Assembly (NCBI GenBank): GCA_963771275.1
Contig: CAVYSW010000006.1
Location: 32,001 to 96,000, forward strand
Direction of reading: 5' to 3'
DNA from: an uncultured Gemmatimonadales bacterium
Lineage (GTDB): Bacteria; Gemmatimonadota; Gemmatimonadetes; Gemmatimonadales; GWC2-71-9
Length of the DNA: 64,000 nt
The notes below the pieces were generated by a model that was not told the DNA's origin, searched no databases, and worked only from the letters and a program-made list of their open reading frames with translations. The position numbers and the translations under genes are program-made. Position 1 is the stretch's first letter. Every line of letters starts with the position of its first letter. Of the stretch, positions 1,149 through 14,619 are shown in pieces.

Positions 1149-2668
1149 AGCAGCGTCTCCCTGGCCGTCAGCATGAACAGGGCTTCGAGGTCCGGGCTGA
1201 GCACGCGATCGGCCGCCAGCGGCGCCACCACCTTGCGGACCCGCGCGTGGAGCCGCTCGACCCCACGCCCCGGCCGGAGCGGCTTGCGGTACTCGAGGGC
1301 CTGCGCCGCGCACAGCAGCTCCGCCGCCACGACGCGCTGCGCGTTGGCGAGCACGCGGCGGGTCTTGTGGGCCGCGGCCATCCCCATCGGCACGACGTCC
1401 TCCTGGCTCGCGCTCGTCGGGATGGACTGCACGCTGGCCGCCGTGCAGAGAGACCGCGCCTCCGCGACCAGCGACGCCGCGGTGATCTGCACCATCATGA
1501 GACCGGAGTCCACCCCAGGCCGGGCGGCGAGAAACGCGGGCAGCCCGTCGGACAGATCGGGATTGAGCAGCCGCTCCACCCGTCGCTCGGCGATGCCGGC
1601 CAGCGTCGTGAGCGCGATCGCCAGCACGTCGAGCGCCAGCGCCACCGGTTGGCCGTGGAAGTTGCCACCCGACAGGATGGCGTCCTCGAACACCAGCGGG
1701 TTGTCGGTCGAGGCGTTGAGCTCGACGATCGCGATGCCGGCCGCGAACTCGACGGCGTCGTGCACCGGGCCAAGCACCTGCGGGGTGCAGCGCAGGCTGT
1801 AGGCGTCCTGCACGCGGGGATCATCGTGGCGGTGCGACTCCCGGATCTCGCTGTCCGCCAGCAGCTCGCGCAGCAGCGCCGCCGAGGCGAGCTGTCCCGG
1901 GTGGGGCCGCGCCCGGTGGATGCGCTCGTCGAACGGCTCCGGGGTGCCGCGCAGCGCCTCGAGCGACATGGCCGCCGCGCCATGCGCCGTGCGCCACAGG
2001 CGCCGTGCGTCGTGAACCAGCAGTGCCAGCACGGCCGTCTGCACCTGCGTGCCGTTGACCAGCGCCACGCCCTCCTTGGCCTCGAGGCGCAGCGGCGCAA
2101 TCCCGGCCCGCCGGAGCGCGTCCCGCGCCGGCATGCGCGTCGCGGGCGCCGTCGCGTCGTCGGGACGCCGCACATCCACGTCCCCCTCACCCAGCAGCGC
2201 CAGCGCGATGTGCGCGAGCGGAGCGAGATCGCCCGACGCCCCAACGCTCCCCTGCTCCGGCACCACCGGATGGATCCCGGCGTTGAGCAGCAGCACGAGG
2301 TGCTCGGCGACTTCCGGGCGGGCACCGCTGGTTTCCCGCAGCAGCACGTTCGCCCGCAGCACCATCGCGGCGCGCACCACGTCTTCGGGCAGCGGCGCGC
2401 CCACCCCGGCCGCATGGCTCAGGATCAGGTTGCGCTGCAGCTCGCGCAGCTGCTCCGGCGGAATCCGCACGTTGGCGAGCTTGCCGAACCCCGTGTTCAC
2501 CGCATAGATGGTGGCGCCGCTCGCGAGGGCGCCCTCGATCCGCTCACGCGACCGGACGGCCCGTCGCGCCGCCTCGGGGGCGATCGTCACGGGGGCGAAG
2601 TCCCGCGCGACGGCCACGACGCCCGCGATCGTGAGGGAGGCACCGTCGAGCGTGATGGGTGGAGGCAT
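1145..2668 (-). CDS. hutH: Histidine ammonia-lyase
   Basis: [12 protein letters not shown] (MIO-forming ASG), [18 protein letters not shown]; adjacent to hutU. Confidence 0.96.
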
Positions 2669-2718
2669 GACGGTAAGTTAGACGACGGGCCGCAGCTTGC
2701 GCGAGTCGCGCGGCTGCT

Positions 2719-2806
2719 CAATGTCCAATGGTCAATGGCCGAATAGCCGACGGCTTTCGGCCATCGGCTATCGGCTATCGGCTTTCGGCTACCGGGTGTC
2801 GGCTAC
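2719..2806. repeat. Degenerate tandem heptamer repeats (CAATGNN x3, then CGGCTAT-like x8)
   Basis: caatgtc caatggt caatggc ... cggcttt cggccat cggctat cggctat cggcttt cggctac cgggtgt cggctac; atagccga is complementary to tcggctat. Confidence 0.85.
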
Positions 2807-3960
2807 CGGCGCCGTACCACCACCGCGCCCTGCGCCTCGCTGGTCGTGAGCCCGCCGTGGACCTGGAGCTCGGGGTTCCCCGGGTCGGTCTGGTAGCTCC
2901 AGTCGAAGATGACGAAGTTCTGCCCCACATGCGTCGGCCGGATGGCGCCGTAGCGGGCGAAACTGTCGCCGCCATCCATCTCGAACACGTAGCCGAACCC
3001 AGGCTGCGCCAGCAGCTGCGTCGAGCCGAAGCCCGACAGCGGGGCGATGTCAATCGACGTGAGGTCGTCGACCGGGCTCAAGCCGTACTGCGTCACGGTG
3101 GCCTGCGCCGGCGCAACGAACAGCTGCTGGGTTCCTGGGTCGCGGTGAATCGTGAAATCCGACGCGGTCGACGCGGCGCCCACGAGCCCGAGCTCGCCCG
3201 GATCCACCTGCCCGTTGCCGTTCAGGTCCTGGAAGAAGCGGAACCCGGCCTGGCTCTGGTTCACGGCGTCGGCGTAGATCACCACGTTGCGCGCGTCGGG
3301 GCGCGGCGTGTCGAACCGCAGCGGCGACCACAGGCTCTCCCAGCCCTCGATGCTCTCGGCCGACACCCCGAAGCAGCGCGGTACGCCGTTCTCGAGCGCC
3401 GCGGCGATGAACTCCGGAGACACCGTCGTCCCCTCCAGCGCCCAGGTCGCGTCGCACAGATTCTGGTCGATCGAGTACCCCGTGCTGTAGACGCGGTACT
3501 CCATGAAGCCGCTCGGCTCCGAGGTAAACGGCGTGTCGTCCCACGCCAGGTAGATCGCGCCGTTGAGCGAGGTGCTGGTGAGGTACGTCGGCGCGCTGAG
3601 CCGCAGGCGCTCGTCCACCTCCACCTCGGTGAGGGCGCTCTCATCCCCGCTCGTGCTCACCGCCGACACGGCGTAGTCCAAGTCGGGGATGCCCGCGTCG
3701 TGGAACGTCGTGGACGTGGTCTCGCCCCGCAGGTCGTACTGGCCCGATGAGCCGGGTCGCGAGTAGACACGGTAGACGGCGAGATCGCTCGCCGGCACGG
3801 GATCCCACTGGAGCAGAATACCCGCCGGCGCCTGCGGGTCGCCGCTCGCGTCGAGCACGTAGAACAGGTTCTGAGGCCGGTCGATCGTGACGACCACGAC
3901 GTCGTTGCTGCACGCCGCCGCCGCGACCAGCCCAACGAGTAGCACGGGGTATCGCATCAT
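2803..3960 (-). CDS. Lipoprotein with two fibronectin type III-like repeats
   Basis: MMRYPVLLVGLVAAAA-C lipobox; two W...YRVYS...Y/F-x-VSA...G-x-ES repeats; DLNGNGQVD Ca-binding-like motif; start chosen from a GAGG RBS. Confidence 0.75.
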   Translation of the reverse strand: MMRYPVLLVGLVAAAACSNDVVVVTIDRPQNLFYVLDASGDPQAPAGILLQWDPVPASDLAVYRVYSRPGSSGQYDLRGETTSTTFHDAGIPDLDYAVSAVSTSGDESALTEVEVDERLRLSAPTYLTSTSLNGAIYLAWDDTPFTSEPSGFMEYRVYSTGYSIDQNLCDATWALEGTTVSPEFIAAALENGVPRCFGVSAESIEGWESLWSPLRFDTPRPDARNVVIYADAVNQSQAGFRFFQDLNGNGQVDPGELGLVGAASTASDFTIHRDPGTQQLFVAPAQATVTQYGLSPVDDLTSIDIAPLSGFGSTQLLAQPGFGYVFEMDGGDSFARYGAIRPTHVGQNFVIFDWSYQTDPGNPELQVHGGLTTSEAQGAVVVRRR

Positions 3961-3997
3961 GACCATTCGCCTCGTGGAAGACTCCGGCACGACCAAG

Positions 3998-4013
3998 AGC
4001 ATGGGCCGTGCCC
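3998..4013 (-). promoter_or_regulatory. Putative sigma54 (-24/-12) promoter
   Basis: Minus strand gGGCACggcccATGCt (GG-N10-GC), about 40 nt upstream of the lipoprotein start. Confidence 0.5.
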
Positions 4014-4041
4014 GGCACTGAATGTCCAATAACCAATTGCC

Positions 4042-4054
4042 AGTCAACAACTTA
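4042..4054. promoter_or_regulatory. Putative IHF site
   Basis: AGTCAAcaacTTA, one mismatch to WATCAANNNNTTR, in an AT-rich patch just upstream of the sigma54-like site. Confidence 0.35.
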
Positions 4055-4145
4055 GCACAACGGACGATCACCTCATCGGTGTCCCCTTTTTCGGACGAAT
4101 CCGCACGAACCCGCACCCAGGCTCGCCCGGACGGGCAGGCCCCGT

Positions 4146-7100
4146 TTACCTGCCCTGTGTGAGCGTCTGCTGATCGTATTGCAGCTTGATATCCGGCTGG
4201 TCGAGCAGCGAGATGAAGAAGTTGAATGCGAAGTTCCCGTTGGGCGACTTGAGGAACTGGAACGTCGCGCGCCAGCGGTGCAGGTCGCGCTCGAGCCGCA
4301 CGACGTGCTGGCCGAACTGCTTCGTGGTGAGGTTGTACTGCGTGCTCCAGGAGAGGGACCAGTTCCTCGTGGGGTCGAAGGCGAACGACAGACCGAGCGT
4401 CTGGTTGTCCGTGAACGCGCTGGGGACCGACGGGCTCTCTGCGCCGGTCGGGCGCTGGCGCTGGCTATCATACGTCACCGAGAGCGAGAGCGGGCGCTTG
4501 CCGGTCCCGCGCGTGGGGCGCAGGTCGTAGTCCTGGAACCGGTCTCCTCTGGACGTCGGGATCAGGCTCGGGGTGACGGCCGTATCGAGCGGCTCAGGGC
4601 GCTCCTCGTCGGTCGACGGGGTCGGGCCGTGCCCCGTGATCAGCCCAACGATGCTGCTGAACGTCCGCTGCGACACAGTGAATCGCGCCGAGACGTGGCT
4701 GAGGAACGGGGCGAACTTGGCGCTGTCGGTGCCCACCGGTCCGTCCCACAGATCGTGCGTGATCCCCAGCGAGAAGCCGGGCAGCAGGTCCGAGGTGAAC
4801 TGGTTGCTGATCGACGACGTGACCCACCCGGTGCGACCCTCTTCCTTCGCCTGCTCGAAATCGTAGCTGAGATCCGACGTCTGAATGCCGAGCAGCTTGA
4901 CCTTGCGGGCGTTGGCGGGGTCGGTGGTCGTGTCGCCCGGGGCCGGGCGCAGCTTGCCCTCGAGGTTCTGCGTCAGGCCGAACGAGATCCGATGCTGCGC
5001 GGGGCTGCGCAGCTGCGGGGTCCTGCCCGGTCCCGCGAGGGCGCGCGCGTACTCTTCGGGCACGTTCGCCGCCGGCGCGTAGCTCCAGCGGATGACCGGC
5101 GAGATCTTGTGGCGCATCCGGCTGATCGGTCCCACGCCGGGAAAGAAGCCGAAGAAGCTCGGCGAGATCCCGGCCCCGAAGGAGAGCCGCTTCCCCTGAC
5201 GGACGAACGACCCGTTCGTGTAGCGGTTCCGCAGCATGAACGCGCCACTCGTGCTGTTCTGGATGCCGATCGTCGGCTGGAGCTTCCACGTGGCCGGGAA
5301 CAGGGCGGGCAGACCGAAACCCGTGCTCCAGTCCACCGACGTGGCAAAGCTCAGGCCGAAGAACGTGTACGTGGTGTCGCTCGGGTCGTTGGGGTCCACG
5401 GTCAGCACGCTGTCACGCCCTTCGCGCATCTCGTCGTGCACCGAGATGCTGTTCTGCCAGTTCCACCCGCCGATGCGAAACGGCGTGCTCAGCTGCAGGT
5501 CGGTGGCGCGGTTCTGGAAGAAGATCGAGTCGACCGGAATCACCGTGTCACCCGGAAGAGGCGGGATCGGTATCGTCCTGGAGAACTGGTGCGACGCGCG
5601 GGAGTTGGTGAACGTGAGACTCGGTGACCACGTGACGAAGCTCGCGAGGTCGATCGGCATCGGACTCAGCGTCAGCGTGGGGAGCGTCTGCGTGACCCCT
5701 CCGTTGGTGAGATCCTGCTGCAGCGATCCGCCGAGCGACAGCGTGCCCCAGCCGAACACCTTGGAGAAGTTGATGGCGCTGTTCAGCTTGGCGGTCGCGA
5801 CGTAGGGATCCACCGTGTTGCGCTCCACCACCCGCGCGCTGGTGACGTAGTCCACGCTCGCCGCGAGCCGGGTGCGGACGTTGAAGTTCTGGTCGTGGCG
5901 CCACTGCACCCCAAGCGAGCGGCCACCCGGTCCGGCGTCGGTGCCATGCTCCCACAGACGCGTGAGGGCGATGCCCCCCTGGAGGAACCGGTCCAGCCAG
6001 CGGTAGCGAAACTGGCCGTTCAAGGAGGTGGAGGTCCCGGCATACCAGTCCATCGACGCCTGGAAGTCGAGGTAGTCGCTGAGGGCGAAGTAGTACCCGA
6101 CGTTGGTCACGTGGCGGGCGTACCCCTGATTGGGACGCACCAGGTCGTTGATCCCGAAGCGCGGCACGAGCATGCCGCTGCGACGGCCGGGACGCATGTC
6201 CTGGAAGATGAACGGCAGCCAGAGCACCGGGACATCCCGCACGTACAGCACCACGGGCCTGGCGATCAGAATCGTGTTGTTCACCCACTTCACCGAGCCG
6301 GCCCGGAAGTGGTAGTGCGGGATCGGCAGCTCGCAGCTCGTCAGATCGCTGCTGCGGGCGAACAGACGCACGGACGCGGAGTCGATGGAGAGCCCGCCGC
6401 GAAGGAACCAGTCCACACCCGACTGGACGAAGTTGGTGAGCGCCTCGTCCACGAAACCGCGGCGCTCGCAGGTGTCGTAGCGCATCTGGTGCCCCACCAG
6501 CACGGTGCCCTTCTGAAACAGCGTCGGCCGGCCGCGCGCCAGCAGCTCGCAGCGGGCCTGGCGAAACCGCACGGTGTCGGCCTCGAGGGTCGCGCCCTCC
6601 TGCTCGACGAGGCCCTGCCCCACCAGCGCCACCGCCTGGGAATCGGCGAACAGGGTGACGCTGTCGGCGGCGTAGCGGACGATCTTGTACGCGGTGTCTG
6701 CGAGCAGGGCGCGGATGATGGAGTCGGCCTCGGGGAAGGAGCGGGTGGGCGCGGTGGGAAGCCCCAGTTGCCGGGCCGCCGCCGTATCGAGGCCCTGTCC
6801 CGGTCCCGCGCGGGCGCGCAGGCTGTCCTGGGCGACGACCCGCGTCGAGTCGGCGCGCGGCGGCCGGGGCGGCCGCTGCGCGTGCAGGACCCCGGGAGCC
6901 GCCAGCGCCACCAGCACCAGGAGACCAGCCACCCCCCCGAGCTTGGGCTGCTGCCGCGCCTTCCAGACGATCCGCGCGATGAGGACCCCACCCTCGTAGA
7001 GCAGGATCAGCGGGATCAGCAGCATCATCATCGAGAGGGCGTCGGGCGGCGTCAGGATCGCCGCGACGATCGACGCGATCACCAGGGCGATGGGCCGGTT

Positions 7101-7685
7101 GCGGGCGAAGAACTTCGGGTTCACCAGCCCGAATGCCGCGAGCAGCACGATCACCAGCGGCAGCTCGAACATCACGCCAAACGCGAGCACGAGCTGGGCG
7201 GCAAACCCGAAGTACTCGTCGGCCGTGATGATCGACTCGAGATCGGCCCGCTGGAAGCTGAACAGGATCCTCAGCGCCGCAGGCAGGACCCATTCGTACG
7301 CGATCGACACCCCGACCACGAACAGCACCAGCCCGGCGAACAGGGCCGGCACGACGAACCGCTTCTCGCGCTGGTACAAGGCCGGAGAGAAGAACGCCCA
7401 CACCTGCCAGATGACGATCGGCGCCGCCAGCACGATGCCGACGAGCGCCGCGAGCTTGAGCGTGATGATGAACGCATCGGTGGGGCGGGTGATGAACAGC
7501 TTGCCGTCCGGCAGAAACGGCGCGATCGGGCGCTTGAGCAGCGACAGGACATCGAAATGCTGTACCACCAGGAAGCCGATGAGCGTACCGGCGATGACCG
7601 CGGTGAGGCTCCAGAGGATGCGCCACCGCAGCTCTTCCAGGTGATCCAGGAAGGGCATTTCGCCCCGCGTGCGCGCTTCGTCCAT
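4146..7685 (-). CDS. tatC: TatC - LptD-like (LPS assembly OMP) fusion protein, 1179 aa
   Basis: aa 1-~241 are TatC (MPFLDHLEELRWRI, FSPALYQREKR, FELP, TPPD). Then a signal-peptide-like segment, then an LptD-like region (TSCELPIPHYHF, RRSGMLVPRFG, RDLHRWRATF, alternating beta-strands). Confidence 0.85.
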   Translation of the reverse strand: MDEARTRGEMPFLDHLEELRWRILWSLTAVIAGTLIGFLVVQHFDVLSLLKRPIAPFLPDGKLFITRPTDAFIITLKLAALVGIVLAAPIVIWQVWAFFSPALYQREKRFVVPALFAGLVLFVVGVSIAYEWVLPAALRILFSFQRADLESIITADEYFGFAAQLVLAFGVMFELPLVIVLLAAFGLVNPKFFARNRPIALVIASIVAAILTPPDALSMMMLLIPLILLYEGGVLIARIVWKARQQPKLGGVAGLLVLVALAAPGVLHAQRPPRPPRADSTRVVAQDSLRARAGPGQGLDTAAARQLGLPTAPTRSFPEADSIIRALLADTAYKIVRYAADSVTLFADSQAVALVGQGLVEQEGATLEADTVRFRQARCELLARGRPTLFQKGTVLVGHQMRYDTCERRGFVDEALTNFVQSGVDWFLRGGLSIDSASVRLFARSSDLTSCELPIPHYHFRAGSVKWVNNTILIARPVVLYVRDVPVLWLPFIFQDMRPGRRSGMLVPRFGINDLVRPNQGYARHVTNVGYYFALSDYLDFQASMDWYAGTSTSLNGQFRYRWLDRFLQGGIALTRLWEHGTDAGPGGRSLGVQWRHDQNFNVRTRLAASVDYVTSARVVERNTVDPYVATAKLNSAINFSKVFGWGTLSLGGSLQQDLTNGGVTQTLPTLTLSPMPIDLASFVTWSPSLTFTNSRASHQFSRTIPIPPLPGDTVIPVDSIFFQNRATDLQLSTPFRIGGWNWQNSISVHDEMREGRDSVLTVDPNDPSDTTYTFFGLSFATSVDWSTGFGLPALFPATWKLQPTIGIQNSTSGAFMLRNRYTNGSFVRQGKRLSFGAGISPSFFGFFPGVGPISRMRHKISPVIRWSYAPAANVPEEYARALAGPGRTPQLRSPAQHRISFGLTQNLEGKLRPAPGDTTTDPANARKVKLLGIQTSDLSYDFEQAKEEGRTGWVTSSISNQFTSDLLPGFSLGITHDLWDGPVGTDSAKFAPFLSHVSARFTVSQRTFSSIVGLITGHGPTPSTDEERPEPLDTAVTPSLIPTSRGDRFQDYDLRPTRGTGKRPLSLSVTYDSQRQRPTGAESPSVPSAFTDNQTLGLSFAFDPTRNWSLSWSTQYNLTTKQFGQHVVRLERDLHRWRATFQFLKSPNGNFAFNFFISLLDQPDIKLQYDQQTLTQGR

Positions 7686-7713
7686 TCGGGGAAGTACGCC
7701 GCCTGAGCGGCGC

Positions 7714-8484
7714 CTAGGGAGTCGCCTTCAGCTTCTCGCGGGCCAGAACCGCCTCATCCGAGCGCGGATATTCGGCCAGCACCCGCTCGTAGTACCCCTT
7801 CGCGGCCGCCCGGTCCCCGCGCCGCTCCGCCATGAGGCCGAGCTTGTAGAGGGCGGTGGGCGCGCGGATCGACCTGGGGTAACCCCGGATGACCGCCTCG
7901 TAGGCCGCGGCCGCGGAATCCGTGTTGCTCCCGGCCCAGCTCTCGCCCAGGAAGTACAGGGCGTCCGGGACCCGTCCGTGGCTGGGGTAGGCCTGCAGTA
8001 ACTGCTGGAGCGCCGCGCGGGCCGCCTGTGGGCTGCCACGACGCAGCTGCTGCACGCCGAGCTCGAGCAGCTGATCGGCGCTCGGCAGCGCCTCCGCCGT
8101 CGTGTCTCCCCCCGCTCCGCCCGCCGCCGGTACCGCTTGCTGCTGCCCGCGGCGCTCGATCTGGGTGCGCAGCTCCGAGAGGCGCTGCTGGCTCTGGCCC
8201 GCGAGCTCCTGCACCTGGACCAGCTGGCGCTGGATCTCGGTGAGATCGGAGCGCATGTCGCCGCGCATCACCGTGAGCCAGCGCTGCTGCGCCGTCAGGG
8301 AGTCCTGGACCGCGCCCAGCAGGGCGATCACACGTTCCAACTCGACAGCCCGCGCGGAGTCCGCGCGGGCTGTCTCGGCACGCATCTCCTGAAGCTCGCG
8401 TTCCACGCGGCGGACGTCGCCCTTGAGCGCACAACCGCTCAGGGCGACGCACGCCGCGGCAACGACGCTGTACGACCTCCTCAC
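7714..8484 (-). CDS. cpoB: Tol-Pal system protein CpoB/YbgF (coiled coil + TPR lipoprotein)
   Basis: Lipobox LSGC, coiled coil, YP...PDALYFLGES, APTALYKLG; follows pal. Confidence 0.8.
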   Translation of the reverse strand: MRRSYSVVAAACVALSGCALKGDVRRVERELQEMRAETARADSARAVELERVIALLGAVQDSLTAQQRWLTVMRGDMRSDLTEIQRQLVQVQELAGQSQQRLSELRTQIERRGQQQAVPAAGGAGGDTTAEALPSADQLLELGVQQLRRGSPQAARAALQQLLQAYPSHGRVPDALYFLGESWAGSNTDSAAAAYEAVIRGYPRSIRAPTALYKLGLMAERRGDRAAAKGYYERVLAEYPRSDEAVLAREKLKATP

Positions 8485-9119
8485 ATCCCGGCGGGGGCCG
8501 TCAGCTGATCGCCCCCCGCGGTGATGGCAACCTCATCACGCCGGTTCTTGGCCCACGCGTCCTCGGTGTGTCCAGGATCGAGTGGCTGCTCTTCGCCCAG
8601 CGAGGCGGTCATGATCCGGTCCGCCGCAATGCCGCGGTTCACCATGTACTCCTTCGCGGCCAGCGCGCGGCGGTTGCCCAGGGCCAGGTTGTACTCGTCC
8701 GAGCCCCGCTCGTCACAGTTGCCCGTGATCGTGATCCGCAGCATCGGGTTCGCCTGGAGAATCGCGATCTTGGTGTCGAGCATCGCGGCATCGCCGGGGC
8801 GGATGTTCGACTTGTCGAAGTCGAAGTGGATCATCTCGCCGAGCATGCCGGCGACCCGCGCGGTCTCACGGGCGAGGGCCGCCAGGGAGTCGGCGCGACG
8901 GCGCTCCGTGGCGAGCCGCTCGGCCTCGGCCTGCGCGCGGCGAATGCTGTCCTCGCGCGCCCGGGCCGCGGCTTCCGCCCGCGCAATCGAGTCACGAATC
9001 GCCGTTGAATCCACTGCCGGCGCCGGCGGCGGCGCGGGCTTGCCGCCGCAGGCGACCGCCGCAGCGACCACGAGAACACCGAGGCTCAGCGTCAGCGGGA
9101 TGGACAGTCTCATGTGCAT
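8481..9119 (-). CDS. pal: Peptidoglycan-associated lipoprotein (OmpA family)
   Basis: IHFDFDKSNI, GNCDERGSDEYNLALGNRRA, WAKNRRDE; lipobox. Confidence 0.92.
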   Translation of the reverse strand: MHMRLSIPLTLSLGVLVVAAAVACGGKPAPPPAPAVDSTAIRDSIARAEAAARAREDSIRRAQAEAERLATERRRADSLAALARETARVAGMLGEMIHFDFDKSNIRPGDAAMLDTKIAILQANPMLRITITGNCDERGSDEYNLALGNRRALAAKEYMVNRGIAADRIMTASLGEEQPLDPGHTEDAWAKNRRDEVAITAGGDQLTAPAGM

Positions 9120-9183
9120 ACCTCAGCGTGTTGAGAGTTCAGATTCCGTACCGCACGTCAGGAGCTTGGATAGTGGCACCAAT

Positions 9184-10512
9184 TTAATCAATTCGCGGCG
9201 ACCACGCAGGCAATCGCGTCTCGGCGCCGCGCGTCAGCTGCCGAATCCGGCCGGTCTCGAGGTCGATCACCCACAGTTGCCGCGAGCCCGTTCGGCTGGA
9301 CACGAACGCGAGGTGCCGGCCGTCGGGCGCCCAGGTGGGGTCCTCGTTGCGTCCCGCACTCGTGAGCTGTCGCACCGTCCGGCTCGCCACGTCCATCACG
9401 AAGATCTGCAGCGACCCGCCCACGTCACGATGGAACGCGATCGACGCCCCGTCCGGCGACCATTCCGGCGCGTTGGAGCTCCCGGTGACCCCGTAGTCGA
9501 ATGGGGCGAACAGCTCCTGCGCGGTGCCGTCCGACGCCATCACGTAGATCTGCGGCAGGCCGGCGCGGGTCGAGACGAACGCGATCCGACCGCCGTCCGG
9601 GCTCATCGTCGGGCTGAGGTTGTCCGCAAAGCGCCCCACCGTCAGCCGCTGCAGACAGCAGTCGCCGGCGATGTCGTAGGAGAAGATGTCGGTGCCGTCC
9701 TCTCCCGAGCGGGTGAACACCAGGGTCCGCCCGTTAGGGGAAAACGCCGGCGTGTAGTTGAGTCCCCGGCTCGTCGGCGGCACCATCCGCCGCCCCCCCG
9801 AGGCGACGTCCTGCAGGTAGATGCCACCGCCCCCGTCGGACCGAAACTCGGTGTAGGCGACGCGCCGGCCGTCGGGCGCCCACGCGGGGGAGAACACCCG
9901 GGTGGAAGGCGGTGACAGCGGGTGGAGATCGGCCCCGTCGGAGTCGATCCGATAGACCCGGCCGCCCTGCAGGAACGCGAGGCGCGTCGCCGCGGTGCCC
10001 CGCGCCCCCGTGGCCGCCTGCACCACATCGTCGCTCACGCGATGGACTGCCAGGCGGAAGCCCGGATCCGTCGCGGCCGGCAGCGCGACGGTGAGGTCGC
10101 GCCGCACGGCGGCCCCGCGCACGTCGTACACGGTGACCTGCAACGGGCCCGCGTCCGTGAGCCGCACGCGCACCGCGAAGTCGGCCCCGAGCGCCCCGTA
10201 CAGCCGGTAGTTCACGAAATCCGGCGTCGCGCCGCGTGCGCGCTGGATGCCGACGACCAGGCTGTCGTCACTCGGCAGGGTGATGACGTCGAACTGGTCG
10301 CTGAAATCGAGATCGCGCGCCAGGATCGCCCGGACCGAGTCGAGCACCGGCTCCGGCGGGGCGCCGAGCACCAGCAAGCCAGGGCGGACGCCCGGCCGGT
10401 ACGTGATCCCCACCCGCACGCCCTCCGTGGGCGGCGGCATGGTGTCCTGGGCCACGGCGACGCGTGCCCCCAGGGCGAGCGGCAGCAGCCACGCCAGTCG
10501 GCGCGCGGTCAT
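9184..10512 (-). CDS. tolB: TolB beta-propeller protein
   Basis: Repeated P-x-W/F-S/A-PDG blades; upstream of pal. Confidence 0.88.
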   Translation of the reverse strand: MTARRLAWLLPLALGARVAVAQDTMPPPTEGVRVGITYRPGVRPGLLVLGAPPEPVLDSVRAILARDLDFSDQFDVITLPSDDSLVVGIQRARGATPDFVNYRLYGALGADFAVRVRLTDAGPLQVTVYDVRGAAVRRDLTVALPAATDPGFRLAVHRVSDDVVQAATGARGTAATRLAFLQGGRVYRIDSDGADLHPLSPPSTRVFSPAWAPDGRRVAYTEFRSDGGGGIYLQDVASGGRRMVPPTSRGLNYTPAFSPNGRTLVFTRSGEDGTDIFSYDIAGDCCLQRLTVGRFADNLSPTMSPDGGRIAFVSTRAGLPQIYVMASDGTAQELFAPFDYGVTGSSNAPEWSPDGASIAFHRDVGGSLQIFVMDVASRTVRQLTSAGRNEDPTWAPDGRHLAFVSSRTGSRQLWVIDLETGRIRQLTRGAETRLPAWSPRID

Positions 10513-11216
10513 CGGATCTTCGAGGGGTCGAAGAAGAAGCTCACCGGCAGGACGTCATTGGCAAACCCCTCCGGCAGGCTGCCGAAGCTCCCCGCGGACC
10601 CGGCGGCCTCGATCGCCCCTTGCGCCTCGACGTCGAACGCGAAGTTCCCCGAGCGCCTGATGAACCGCAGGTTCGAGATCGAGCCGTCCCGGTGAATCAG
10701 GAAGAACACCTCCGCCTGCAGGGCCGTCTGGCCGCCGGGGCGCTGCCAGCGCCGGAAGACCTGGCCGACGAGATTGTTGATATACTCGGGGTACGGAAAC
10801 TCCTGGCCCTCGATCTGCACCGTGGCCGGGTCCGACCCGGTCGACGGCGTCACACCGGGCAGGGGCTCGGCGGCCGGCGTGGTGCGCGGCGCAGGCTCGC
10901 GCTGCACGTTCGGCTTCGCGGCCGGCGGCGCCGCCGGCGCGACCGTCGTCCGGCGCGGGGCGGGCGCCGGGGCCGGGGCCGGCCGTTCCGCGGGACGCTC
11001 CACTACCGCCGGGGCGCGCCGCGCCTGGGGCTCGGGCCGGGGGGCGGCCACGAGCGACACGCGGTAGATCGGTGGCGCAAGCTGGCGTCCGTACTCGGGC
11101 GCGCCGGCCAGGACCGCCAGCACGGCGCCGTGCAGCACCAGCGTCCCGGCAAACGCGACCCTCCACCCGCCGGACGCGGTCTTGAGCTGCCGCCGCACGC
11201 GGCCCGCCTGCTTCAC
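10509..11216 (-). CDS. TolA/TonB family energy transducer
   Basis: TM with conserved His (LVLHGAVL), Pro/Ala-rich linker, TonB/TolA C-terminal domain (FLIHRDGSI..RSGNFAFD). Confidence 0.8.
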   Translation of the reverse strand: MKQAGRVRRQLKTASGGWRVAFAGTLVLHGAVLAVLAGAPEYGRQLAPPIYRVSLVAAPRPEPQARRAPAVVERPAERPAPAPAPAPRRTTVAPAAPPAAKPNVQREPAPRTTPAAEPLPGVTPSTGSDPATVQIEGQEFPYPEYINNLVGQVFRRWQRPGGQTALQAEVFFLIHRDGSISNLRFIRRSGNFAFDVEAQGAIEAAGSAGSFGSLPEGFANDVLPVSFFFDPSKIR

Positions 11217-11635
11217 CGTCCCAGCTCCTCCGACTCGGCCACCAGCCCCACGTCCCCGACGCCCGCCGCGCGCATCACGGCCAGCACACGCACCACCTGG
11301 CCGTAGTCGACCCGCGCGTCCCCGCGCAGGTAGATGCCCGAGGGCTTGCGCGCCCGGACCATGGCCGGGAAGGCGGCGCGGAACTCCTCGAGCGTGAGCG
11401 GGCTCTCGTCCACGAAGATCCGCCCCTGACGGTCCACCGAGACGATCAGGCCTTCCTTGGGCTGCAGCGGCCGGGCCTCCGCCCGGGGCAGCTGCACGTC
11501 CACCCCGCCTTGCATGATCGGGGCGGTGATCATGAAGATGATCAGCAGCGTGAAGGCGAGGTCCACCAGGGACGTCACGTTGATATCGGCCATCAGTGGC
11601 GGCTCGCCCCGGCCGCGCAGCCCGGCTCCGTTCAT
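11213..11635 (-). CDS. tolR: TolR/ExbD biopolymer transporter
   Basis: DINVTSLVDLAFTLLIIFMITAP, LRGD. Confidence 0.88.
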   Translation of the reverse strand: MNGAGLRGRGEPPLMADINVTSLVDLAFTLLIIFMITAPIMQGGVDVQLPRAEARPLQPKEGLIVSVDRQGRIFVDESPLTLEEFRAAFPAMVRARKPSGIYLRGDARVDYGQVVRVLAVMRAAGVGDVGLVAESEELGR

Positions 11636-11638
11636 GAC

Positions 11639-12349
11639 CTAGAGCCTCCCCTCGCGTGCCAGCGTCGCGACGATCTCGTGCGCGAAGCCCTCCATCTCGC
11701 CGGCGAACAGGCCGAGCCGGCTGACGAGGAGGTTGTAGGCCATGACGGCGGGAATCGCCACCACCAGCCCGGCGACCGTCGTGACCAGCGCCTCCGCGAC
11801 CCCCGGCGCCACCGCCGAGATGTTGCCCGACCCTCCGGTCGCGATGCCGATGAAGGCGTGCATCACGCCGACGACGGTCCCCAACAGGCCCATGAGCGGG
11901 CTCGCCGACCCGATCGTCGCGAGCCAGGGGAGGAACCGGGCCATGATGTCCCGCTCAGCGCCGATCTCCTTCGCGAGCACCAGCCGCAGCGCTTCGAGCT
12001 GCGTCATGGTGAGCGTCGCGTGGGCCGCGTCCACCGTCGCCTGCAGGGCGCCGGGGCGGAGCTCGGCAAAGAAGTTCACGCCCTCCCGCAGGATCCGTCC
12101 GTACGGTGACGGCGGCAGCTTCATTACCGCGTGGTACGCGTCCTCGAGCCGGGTCGTCCGCTCCAGCGCGCTGAAGAACCGGTCGCCCTGGCGGCGGACC
12201 CGCCGGAATTGCCGGAGCTTCATGAAGATCAGGAACCAGCTGAAGAGCGAGAAGAACGCCAGCACCGCCAGAATGACTTTGGTAATCGGCGTCGAGGCCG
12301 CGACCAGGTCCCACGTGCTGGTCGGGAGCGCGCCTCCCACCTGCATCAT
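11639..12349 (-). CDS. tolQ: TolQ/ExbB proton channel
   Basis: LATIGSASPLMGLLGTVVG, VAPGVAEALVTTVAGL; start at ATGA overlap with the upstream stop. Confidence 0.88.
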   Translation of the reverse strand: MMQVGGALPTSTWDLVAASTPITKVILAVLAFFSLFSWFLIFMKLRQFRRVRRQGDRFFSALERTTRLEDAYHAVMKLPPSPYGRILREGVNFFAELRPGALQATVDAAHATLTMTQLEALRLVLAKEIGAERDIMARFLPWLATIGSASPLMGLLGTVVGVMHAFIGIATGGSGNISAVAPGVAEALVTTVAGLVVAIPAVMAYNLLVSRLGLFAGEMEGFAHEIVATLAREGRL

Positions 12350-13299
12350 GCCGCCTCCAACCCGCTGATCCACTCGTAGGTGCGCCGCAACCCAGCCCCG
12401 AGCGCCACCTCCGGTCGCCACCCGATGGCCGTCGCGGCCTTTGCGATTGCCACGGCGCTGCGCCTCAGCTCGCCGGCCCGTGCCGGCTCGTGTGCGATGG
12501 GCACCTCGATGCCCACCGCCCGCATCATCGTCCGGGCGAGATCGTTGACGCTGGTCTCGACCGTGGTCCCGATGTTGACGGCGGCATCGTCCAACGATCC
12601 GGGCGGTCCCACCGGTGCCTCACTCGCCAGCACGCTCGCCCGCGCGACGTCGCGCACGAACACGTAGTCGCGCGTCTGCTCTCCGTCTCCGTACACCGTG
12701 ATGGGGCGGCGGTGCCGCAGCCGGCTGCCGAAGATCGCCACGACGCCGGCTTCGCCGTGCGGATTCTGGCGCGGCCCGTACACGTTGGCGTACCGCAGAC
12801 ACCGCACCGCCATGCCGTGGAGGATGGCGTACTGCGCGAGATAGTACTCGGACGCGAGCTTGCTGACCCCATACGGCGAGACGGGCAGCTTGGGCACCGT
12901 CTCGGCATAGGGCAGGGCTTCGCCTTCGCCGTAGACGACCCCACCGGAGGACGCGAACACCACCCGCTTCACGCCCCCCTCGCGCGCACCTTCCAGGAGA
13001 TTGAGCAGCCCGAGCAGATTGATGTCGGCATCGAGCCGCGGGTCGCGCACCGAGACCCGCACGTCCGCCTGCGCCGCCTGGTGGTTCAACACCGCAAAGC
13101 CACCCGCGGCGAGGAGGGCGCGCGCGGCAGGCCCGCGCACGTCCTCGTGGACGAACTCGGCCCCCGCAGGGACGTTTTCCCGCCGGCCGGTCGAGAGGTT
13201 GTCCACGATCGTTACGGCGTACCCGTGCTCGAGGTACTGCTCCGCCACGTGTGACCCGATGAACCCCGCCCCACCCGTCACCAGCACCCGTCCCTTCAT
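12346..13299 (-). CDS. NAD-dependent epimerase (UDP-glucose 4-epimerase-like)
   Basis: VLVTGGAGFIGSH, PYGVSK, YANVYGPRQ, GEAGVV. Confidence 0.88.
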   Translation of the reverse strand: MKGRVLVTGGAGFIGSHVAEQYLEHGYAVTIVDNLSTGRRENVPAGAEFVHEDVRGPAARALLAAGGFAVLNHQAAQADVRVSVRDPRLDADINLLGLLNLLEGAREGGVKRVVFASSGGVVYGEGEALPYAETVPKLPVSPYGVSKLASEYYLAQYAILHGMAVRCLRYANVYGPRQNPHGEAGVVAIFGSRLRHRRPITVYGDGEQTRDYVFVRDVARASVLASEAPVGPPGSLDDAAVNIGTTVETSVNDLARTMMRAVGIEVPIAHEPARAGELRRSAVAIAKAATAIGWRPEVALGAGLRRTYEWISGLEAA

Positions 13300-13340
13300 G
13301 CCCGATCCTCGCGTCTCAGTCCGCGTTCCCTGCCGCCGCA

Positions 13341-13400
13341 AACGAAGCGGCGGGGCCCGTGCCGGATCCCATCGTCGTTGGTCCGGCTGAGCCCCGCCGC
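13341..13400 (-). terminator. Putative intrinsic terminator after the LysM gene
   Basis: gcggcggggc...gccccgccgc stem followed by TTCGTTT on the minus strand. Confidence 0.45.
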
Positions 13401-13422
13401 GTCGAGGCCGTCAGCGGCCTCG

Positions 13423-14619
13423 TCAAGACGGCATCTTGCGGATCAGCCGCACCGGCACGCCGACCGCTTCCTGGCCGGCGGTCCGAATCCCCAGCGTGTA
13501 GATCTCGCTCACCAAGGCCGTCGCCGAGCGGTCCCGCACGTGCACGACACGCACGTCGGCGAGCGTCTGCGGCTCATCGCCCTGCGGGACGGCGCCCTTG
13601 CGCGGGAGCACCTCGAACACGTCTCCCGGCGCGATGCCGGCGTTGCGGCCCAGATCGATGAACACCACGTCGAACTGCTTCGGCACCTGGTGGATGTCGC
13701 GCAGCGCGATGATGTTGCCCTGCACGCCGTCGGCGACTGGAGCGGGCCGCACGACCCCCGGGTCCTTGAACGGCTCGAGCGGCAGCGCCACCTGCCCGGT
13801 GCCGACCCGGTCGAACTGCATCACGATGTCGCCCTCGACATCGCGCCCCTCGACGCTCGTCACCAGCACGATGCCGGTGGGGTAGACGATCTTGCCGTGG
13901 CCGGACACCCCGCGCGTGAGCAGCGCGGTCAGCAGGCTGTCGCCCACCTGGTACGTCGCGCCGCTCGGCGGCCTGATGCGCACCCGCTGATAGATCACGG
14001 CCGTGGTCCCGGTCACGCCACGGGGTGCCGCGACATCGGCGTTGCCCAGCACCTCGGCCCAGGGGAGCTTCTCGTTCTCGGTGAGGAACCCCGCCGCGTA
14101 GAACTCGCCGGACCGCACGGCGCGATACGTGTCGGCCGCCCGGGAGATCGGGCCGGAGATCGTACTGCGCGGCGTGCTCGCGAACACCGTCGGGGTCATC
14201 GTCATCGGGGGGGGCGGCGGCCCCTGCACCGCGGCCGGCGCCTCCACCTGTGCGGGCGGCGGTGCCACAGGCAGCTGCCCAGCTGGCGGCTCGGTCACCG
14301 GCGGCTGCGCAACGGGAGGAGTCGGCTGTGCGACGGGCTCGGGAACCGCCACCGCCGTGTGATCCACCGGAGCGAGCACCAGCTCCTCACCCGGGAAGAT
14401 CCAGTGCGGGTCCTCGACCACCGCCGTGTTGAGCCGGTAGATCTCCGGCCAGAGAAACGGGTCGCCAAAGTAGAGTTGCGCGAGCCCCCACAACGTCTCC
14501 CCCGACTGAACCACATGCCGCGCCGGCGGCGGCGTGACTTGCTGGGCCCGCGCCGTGGCGGTGACCCCCGCGGCCATTGTCGCCCCCAGCAACACCGTAA
14601 CGAAGTTTCTGCTCCTCAT
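13423..14619 (-). CDS. Secreted LysM peptidoglycan-binding protein
   Basis: Signal peptide, HVVQSGETLWGLAQLYFGDPFLWPEIY...PHWIFPGE, Pro-rich linker. Confidence 0.88.
   Translation of the reverse strand: MRSRNFVTVLLGATMAAGVTATARAQQVTPPPARHVVQSGETLWGLAQLYFGDPFLWPEIYRLNTAVVEDPHWIFPGEELVLAPVDHTAVAVPEPVAQPTPPVAQPPVTEPPAGQLPVAPPPAQVEAPAAVQGPPPPPMTMTPTVFASTPRSTISGPISRAADTYRAVRSGEFYAAGFLTENEKLPWAEVLGNADVAAPRGVTGTTAVIYQRVRIRPPSGATYQVGDSLLTALLTRGVSGHGKIVYPTGIVLVTSVEGRDVEGDIVMQFDRVGTGQVALPLEPFKDPGVVRPAPVADGVQGNIIALRDIHQVPKQFDVVFIDLGRNAGIAPGDVFEVLPRKGAVPQGDEPQTLADVRVVHVRDRSATALVSEIYTLGIRTAGQEAVGVPVRLIRKMPS

Follow-up and report, generated by a model that had tools for sequence, protein, structure and literature searches.

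A described precedent for two membrane-associated proteins made from one gene is FbcH of Bradyrhizobium japonicum, reportedly a cytochrome b/c1 polyprotein that is encoded by one open reading frame (ORF), carries an internal signal peptide and is processed as a precursor into two proteins. In that system, the single ORF is reported to encode first a polytopic inner-membrane protein whose end lies in the cytoplasm, and then to continue through an internal signal peptide into an exported protein. Here we describe an ORF with the same layout (a polytopic protein with a cytoplasmic end, an internal signal peptide and an exported part) that joins tatC to lptD in a 64,000-nucleotide stretch of contig CAVYSW010000006.1 from an uncultured Gemmatimonadales bacterium; we call the whole stretch the window. 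The likeness has limits. Both FbcH products are part of one inner-membrane complex, whereas TatC and LptD belong to unrelated machines in different membranes. Moreover, the downstream LptD product still has the periplasm to cross and depends on the beta-barrel assembly machinery (BAM) for its folding, and the processing step is here a predicted one.

Each half of the fusion also has well-described counterparts. Solved TatC proteins have six helices with both termini in the cytoplasm, and in Escherichia coli TatC the TatA/B-type helices dock beside the sixth transmembrane helix (TM6). The TatC part of the fusion shares with canonical TatC (E. coli 9dzz, Aquifex aeolicus 4b4a) a full-length alignment, six hydrophobic segments and both glutamates discussed below. 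It differs in lacking a free cytoplasmic C-terminal tail, and after the predicted cleavage it would bear a seventh helix and a periplasmic C-terminus. The LptD part matches the solved LptD structures 7omm and 8h1r from the N-terminal domain into the beginning of the barrel. It is of the LptD_2 type (PF19838), which was also matched in a Bacteroides thetaiotaomicron control genome, and differs from classical LptD in that the fusion protein has no PF04453 or PF03968 match. Unlike in known LptD, its signal peptide is internal instead of N-terminal, and it has an extra conserved N-terminal linker of 60 residues.

One frame for two envelope proteins

The fusion ORF lies at 4146..7685 on the minus strand and runs from ATG to TAA over 1179 codons, with G+C at third codon positions (GC3) of 0.92. 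In order, the 1179-aa product comprises a complete TatC, a short basic loop, a signal-peptide-like segment ending in LHA/Q (a slash marks the predicted cut) and an LptD_2-type LptD. Translation gives the junction as IARIVWKARQQPK-LGGVAGLLVLVALAA-PGVLHA/QRPPRPPR, with the predicted cut between A269 and Q270; the whole region between the two domains reads IARIVWK-ARQQPK-LGGVAGLLVLVALAAPGVLHA/QRPPRPPR. A preliminary description of this DNA had reported the uninterrupted ORF and its junction sequence, a C7 run at 6932-6938 and stops at 6341 and 5548 in the other frames, and the sequence, the ORF listing and the translation bear out each of these. The homopolymer (G7 in the coding sense), an obvious artefact suspect, falls within the signal-peptide codons L249-V252.

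Because the window is 70% G+C, and several spurious ORFs of 600-690 aa overlap the fusion ORF, a long open frame is by itself little evidence. The fusion stands out from chance for two reasons: its halves both match strong families within a single frame, and relatives conserve the join. GC3 in the fusion frame is 0.92 in the TatC part and in the LptD part alike, compared with 0.46-0.69 in the alternative long ORFs.

The TatC part (aa 1-242; 6960..7685, minus strand) contains six hydrophobic segments, followed in the hydropathy profile by a seventh at 249-265. PF00902 matches aa 14-225 with E 3.5e-61 and 207 bits against a cut-off of 25.1, covering profile positions 1-208 of 208, and the NCBIfam tatC model TIGR00945 scores 201 bits against a cut-off of 132.7. 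This part aligns end to end with the solved TatC chains 4b4a, 4htt and 9dzz (E about 4e-42 as a single sequence and 1e-62 as a profile). Residues E18 and E107, invariant in the 81 sequences of alignment A1, align to positions 15 and 103 of 9dzz; in E. coli TatC these are E15 and E103, which we take to be the signal-peptide-binding glutamates. By its sequence, the TatC part looks functional.

The LptD part would begin, after the predicted cut, with a Pro/Arg/Asp-rich linker (aa 270-331; 6693..6878, minus strand) that carries the motif DTAAARxLGLPTAPSRSFPxADS, in which D300, P310, P313, P318 and D321 are invariant in the 81 sequences of A1. The same motif is found in relatives from the source genome's family that have separate genes. 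An N-terminal domain, probably a beta-jellyroll, follows at about aa 332-455 (6321..6692, minus strand), and the LptD_2 barrel region occupies aa 474-1179 (4149..6266, minus strand). PF19838 matches aa 474-674 and a second stretch with E 1.9e-39 and 136 bits against a cut-off of 22.5. A profile built from A1 matches solved LptD 7omm with E 1e-9 (positions 332-655 to residues 90-398) and 8h1r with E 5.5e-8, while positions 332-381 match LptA 8onu weakly (E 0.0034). The Pfam profile search found no PF03968 (LptD_N) match in the fusion protein of the window, but the fused relative P0153 does match this family (E 4.7e-6); we therefore regard the jellyroll assignment as likely, short of proof. Hydropathy revealed no strongly hydrophobic, helix-like segment in aa 271-1179. 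Together, the complete TatC profile match and the PF19838 and solved-LptD matches uphold the earlier domain assignments at both ends of the ORF.

We aligned Logan contigs from sequencing runs of three studies across the join, and these span at least 6875-7313 without a frameshift. Run X1, which may be the source sample, yields a 16.9-kb contig over the join with 3 substitutions and 0 gaps; run X2 yields a 439-nt contig over 6875-7313 that is identical to the window; and run X10 yields a 1394-nt contig over the join with 59 substitutions and one 3-nt in-frame insertion, which represents a related strain that keeps the frame. Contigs of X1, X2 and X10 bridge the C7 run in frame, with neither frameshift nor stop at the join, so that the broken junction named in the preliminary description as a refutation is not seen in them; in contigs of run X3 the C7 run lies outside the covered part. 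The fusion ORF is genuine and not an assembly artefact.

Distribution and history of the fusion

In a search of 41 related genomes, the full fusion protein was matched as one piece in many. Translation of 16 loci, from the source genus and nine others at 45-74% identity, showed that tatC reads on into lptD in frame, uninterrupted by a stop at the join. We then surveyed the family of the source genome (f1; the families f2, f3, f6, f7 and f10 mentioned below are other Gemmatimonadota) by querying 141 genomes, the source genome included, with aa 201-330. The genes are fused in 119 of these: 109 genomes gave a stop-free match over the whole query, 8 a stop-free match over the join that ended earlier, and 2 (G198, G069) proved fused by translation. 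Separate genes were found in 18 genomes, one genome (G386) was ambiguous and 3 gave no match. Two of the fused genomes (G202, G084) are flagged as unpublished; without both, the count is 117 of 139.

Public data agree with this survey. We examined the 80 best loci from uncultured metagenome-assembled genomes (MAGs) whose labels read Gemmatimonadales, Gemmatimonadota or similar: the fusion is present in 70, another 7 carry tatC and lptD in different frames, and the remaining 3 contain one part only. PF00902 and PF19838 occur together in 120 of the 120 listed protein clusters at 90% identity, whose sources are NCBI, JGI, ENA and Logan; the ESM Atlas holds two fusion clusters, of 104 and 78 members; and junction-spanning representatives occur among the 50%-identity clusters down to 37% identity. 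The preliminary description had proposed a search for this architecture in independent Gemmatimonadota genomes, and the translated loci, the family survey and the MAG loci all contain it. Its opposite case, in which close relatives all carry separate genes, is not what we found, as close and distant relatives alike are fused.

The two genes are neighbours well beyond the fused lineages. Across the phylum (f2, f3, f6, f7, f10) tatC is followed by lptD, usually after cpoB. Separate-gene members of these families encode the same TatC and the same LptD_2, with the same cleavage motif and N-terminal linker, but differ in having a stop and a start codon between the genes and a TatC with a tail of 15-35 residues. 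In G031 the tatC stop and the lptD start overlap in a 4-nt GTGA, and in G040 a TAG is followed directly by GTG, in frame; judged from their sequences, such precursor arrangements are one mutation away from fusion. This comparison indicates that the ORF in the window is an inherited in-frame fusion of genes that neighbour each other throughout the phylum.

Fusion happened more than once. Within one genus of f2, G035 and G247 are fused independently of f1; both still have the complete TatC tail and the former Met codons, and G031, of the same genus, has separate genes. Long-tail junctions occur within f1 too (G198, G069). G035 has, in addition to its fused tatC-lptD (C6:68668-71979), a free-standing second tatC (C2:141617-142339). 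A third independent fusion was suspected in f7, where G103 showed an open-frame length of 1273 aa for both halves; its translation shows an in-frame stop between them, and the candidate was therefore rejected and open-frame length no longer used as an indicator of fusion. The relative P0061 (1567 aa) looked like a triple fusion of TatC, LptD and the downstream lipoprotein, into which it runs on (52% identity), and was also set aside: the C-terminal half of its LptD reads out of frame, probably through a frameshift artefact, and the case illustrates the ease with which false fusions arise at such G+C. In L008, the locus of G006 (same genus, 73% complete), an in-frame TAG stands at locus position 2611, some 60 codons inside the conserved N-terminal region of LptD, and may reflect an error, strain variation or a broken gene. 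Flags of one TAG each in G009, G011 and G022 are terminal stops.

For the LptD part, a quick maximum-likelihood tree of 34 rows (with support from the Shimodaira-Hasegawa-like approximate likelihood ratio test, SH-aLRT, only) implies at least 6 changes between the fused and separate states, and on it the separate forms G134, G018, G013, G016 and G007 nest among fused ones. This history fits either a single ancient fusion that reverted several times or fusion on repeated occasions. Three separate TatC proteins of f1 end in ..SIGT* (L037, G134), ..TISGT* (L021, G007) and ..RRAAAAAADAT* (L028, G016), in the order as given, and these ends are similar to the start of the fused signal segment in the fused forms most closely related to each. 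The three loci may have arisen through secondary splitting of a gene that was once fused. Overall, the fused and separate states seem functionally interchangeable.

Predicted processing at the junction

Between TatC and LptD, a short basic loop, taken to be cytoplasmic (aa 243-248, ARQQPK, after K242; 6942..6959, minus strand), recognized by translation and hydropathy, replaces both the TatC tail and the n-region of a signal peptide. It leads into a seventh hydrophobic segment that translation, hydropathy and comparison with relatives mark as a putative internal signal peptide (aa 249-269, LGGVAGLLVLVALAA-PGVLHA; 6879..6941, minus strand), with the predicted signal peptidase I site A269/Q270 between 6879 and 6878. 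In separate-gene relatives, LptD starts with M or V followed by 1-3 basic residues, a hydrophobic run and VVA/Q, AAS/Q, GVA/Q or AAA/Q; the LHA/Q of the fusion aligns with this N-terminal signal-peptide site. TatC in the same relatives ends in an acidic/Ala-rich tail of 15-35 residues. In most f1 fusions the TatC tail and the n-region are lost, and the basic patch after TM6 leads directly into the hydrophobic h-region.

We derived cleavage-site statistics from 81 aligned fusions. The n-region has a median net charge of +4 and the uncharged stretch a median length of 21 residues; a helix breaker, P or G, stands at -7..-2 in 78 of 81. Position -3 is A in 43, L in 22, V in 5, G in 5, S in 4 and T in 2, and position -1 is A in 69, G in 9, S in 2 and T in 1, so that the -3/-1 rule is satisfied in 81 of 81. 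Position -2 is free (E, H, A, R, S, Q, D and others), and +1 is Q in 80 of 81. A kept -3/-1 pattern around a free -2, at the same site as in separate LptD, is hard to explain if the segment is a mere anchor. The pattern is characteristic of a site selected for cutting by signal peptidase I, and the alignment supports the view that the linker is LptD's own signal peptide, now internal. Because the TatC C-terminus is cytoplasmic, the next hydrophobic segment must pass from inside to outside, as a signal peptide does. The preliminary description had proposed a seventh transmembrane segment or signal peptide here, and the agreement with the signal peptides of separate LptD supports that proposal.

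We consider it probable that the chain inserts as a seven-helix membrane protein and that signal peptidase I cuts it at A269/Q270, leaving a seven-helix TatC and a normal mature LptD. In this scheme, the ribosome would make a single 1179-aa chain, and TatC would insert into the inner membrane with six helices and both termini in the cytoplasm, as expected from its homology to solved TatC. After the basic loop of 5-7 residues, the Sec-type signal peptide of LptD would insert as helix 7 and bring LptD across, and signal peptidase I would cut after L-H-A. One product would be a TatC in which the signal peptide persists as a permanent helix 7 and which has a periplasmic C-terminus; the other would be a normal mature LptD starting at Gln270, to be folded into the outer membrane by Omp85/BAM. 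LptD would thus reach the translocon co-translationally, riding on a membrane protein, and in a 1:1 ratio with TatC. The topology of helix 7, the cleavage and the fate of the products are all inferred from sequence.

Several observations weigh against this scheme. At about 21 residues, the uncharged stretch is among the longer ones for a cleavable signal peptide and could also act as a stable anchor; the 6 or more state changes mean that the fusion may be nearly neutral and not selected; and, in a survey of 87 fused loci for which DNA was available, 70 have some in-frame ATG, GTG or TTG at -32..-14, the window among them with a GTG at V252. The last of these would suit internal initiation, by which LptD would be made as an ordinary precursor (here from V252, 18 codons ahead of the predicted cleavage site, with the product MAGLLVLVALAAPGVLHA/Q) and the full-length fusion would be minor or irrelevant; the independent f2 fusions, moreover, retain Met codons at the old LptD start. 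However, start codons are not enriched in these loci (80%) over equal-sized control windows in the TatC body (78%), they show no common position and are avoided at -26..-19, the place expected for a real start, and 17 of the 87 loci have no candidate at all, which argues that an internal start is neither conserved nor required, although it may occur in some genomes. A Shine-Dalgarno-like motif lies upstream in just 9 of 87, a product starting at V252 would be without a basic n-region, and in G009 no start codon occurs anywhere from the basic patch to the cleavage site. We regard internal initiation as an unlikely source of LptD in place of cleavage.

The length of the hydrophobic stretch, with its median of 21 uncharged residues, also speaks for the alternative raised in the preliminary description, an uncleaved trans-envelope protein, in which segment 249-269 would be a permanent anchor and the Pro-rich linker of 60 residues would reach to an LptD barrel in the outer membrane and physically couple the Tat and Lpt sites. 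The linker at aa 270-331 is indeed long, looks disordered and bears an invariant motif, and the gene sits in an envelope cluster after tol-pal-cpoB. Yet all 81 fusions keep the -3/-1 pattern with its free -2, along with the helix breaker and +1 Gln, as separate LptD does; separate-gene forms have the same linker, which is therefore not a tethering adaptation; and the interchange of fused and separate forms among close relatives argues that their mature products are equivalent. Such a permanent tether is improbable, and there is an equally slender chance that some of the TatC remains linked, by way of helix 7 and the linker, to outer-membrane LptD, as one polypeptide through both membranes. Least credible, and very nearly to be dismissed, is the view that the fusion is a pseudogene in decay or a sequencing or assembly error caused by an indel in the C7 run. 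A homopolymer does lie exactly at the join, frameshifts at 70% G+C do yield long false ORFs such as that of P0061, and G006 has a TAG inside its LptD part. Against this, independent contigs agree across the join, the fusion recurs at 45-90% identity in many assembly sources, Mb-scale contigs included, most relatives have no homopolymer at the join, GC3 is equally high on both sides of it, and the ORF holds the sole TatC and the sole LptD of its genome. Cleavage of the translated fusion into two proteins is thus the reading we favour.

Genomic setting and meaning

The source genome is 96.7% complete, and profile searches found in it no second TatC, no second LptD_2 and no PF04453 LptD, which answers the question raised in the preliminary description about further tatC or lptD copies. 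The genome encodes two signal peptidase I proteins (Peptidase_S26, PF10502), two TatA/B/E proteins (PF02416), LptF/G and LpxC, with six Omp85 matches and three PF10518 TAT_signal matches just above the cut-off. With a sole TatC, a sole LptD and the partner machinery present, both halves of the fusion are expected to be needed.

All neighbouring genes described here lie on the minus strand. Upstream, across a 28-nt gap, adjoins a cpoB/ybgF-like tetratricopeptide repeat (TPR) gene (7714..8484; Pfam TPR_6 and YfiO), and beyond it a tol-pal cluster identified by Pfam domains (8481..12421) comprises Pal (OmpA domain, 8481-9119), TolB (PD40, 9184-10512), a TolA-like protein (TonB_2, 10509-11216) and TolQ (MotA_ExbB, 11639-12421). 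In 28 of 34 loci, cpoB stands ahead of tatC, or ahead of lptD in cases where tatC has relocated. Downstream, at 2803..3966, lies a gene for a 387-aa protein with a lipoprotein-like N-terminus (..LLVGLVAAAAC) and no Pfam family. It follows lptD in 30 of 34 loci, in f1 and f3 and not in three f2 loci, and could be an LptE-like partner. The cpoB-tatC gap contains a GC hairpin (CGCCGC-TCAG-GCGGCG, 7697-7712) that has no T-run after it and was not flagged by the terminator scan; a promoter and terminator scan of 2600-13500 found nothing above shuffle expectation.

We found no published work on a TatC-LptD fusion in the searchable literature on TatC, LptD and Gemmatimonad topics, and the words "fused" and "fusion" are absent from the available portion of a 2013 survey of TatC diversity (PMC3827258). 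The fusion sequences are public under automatic names, yet appear to be undescribed and uninterpreted in searchable papers. Public records name the fusion proteins of 1150-1200 aa mostly just "twin-arginine translocase subunit TatC". Because these records are labelled as TatC only, LptD looks missing from most f1 genomes in pathway surveys.

The fusion is a natural and widely conserved case of a polytopic inner-membrane protein whose translated chain continues, as its tail, into an outer-membrane beta-barrel protein. Having arisen at least 2 times, with two junction types, it is an example of compatible topology permitting gene fusion. If the favoured reading is true, an outer-membrane protein would arrive at the Sec translocon while still being translated and be released by cleavage at an internal signal peptide, which raises the testable question of whether outer-membrane protein biogenesis tolerates such a targeting route. 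If the chain were instead a tether, Tat export and lipopolysaccharide insertion would be co-located, beside the Tol-Pal system encoded just upstream. Even if it is cleaved, the TatC of f1 would be a seven-helix protein with its extra helix beside TM6, and this predicted form bears on the assembly of the Tat receptor.

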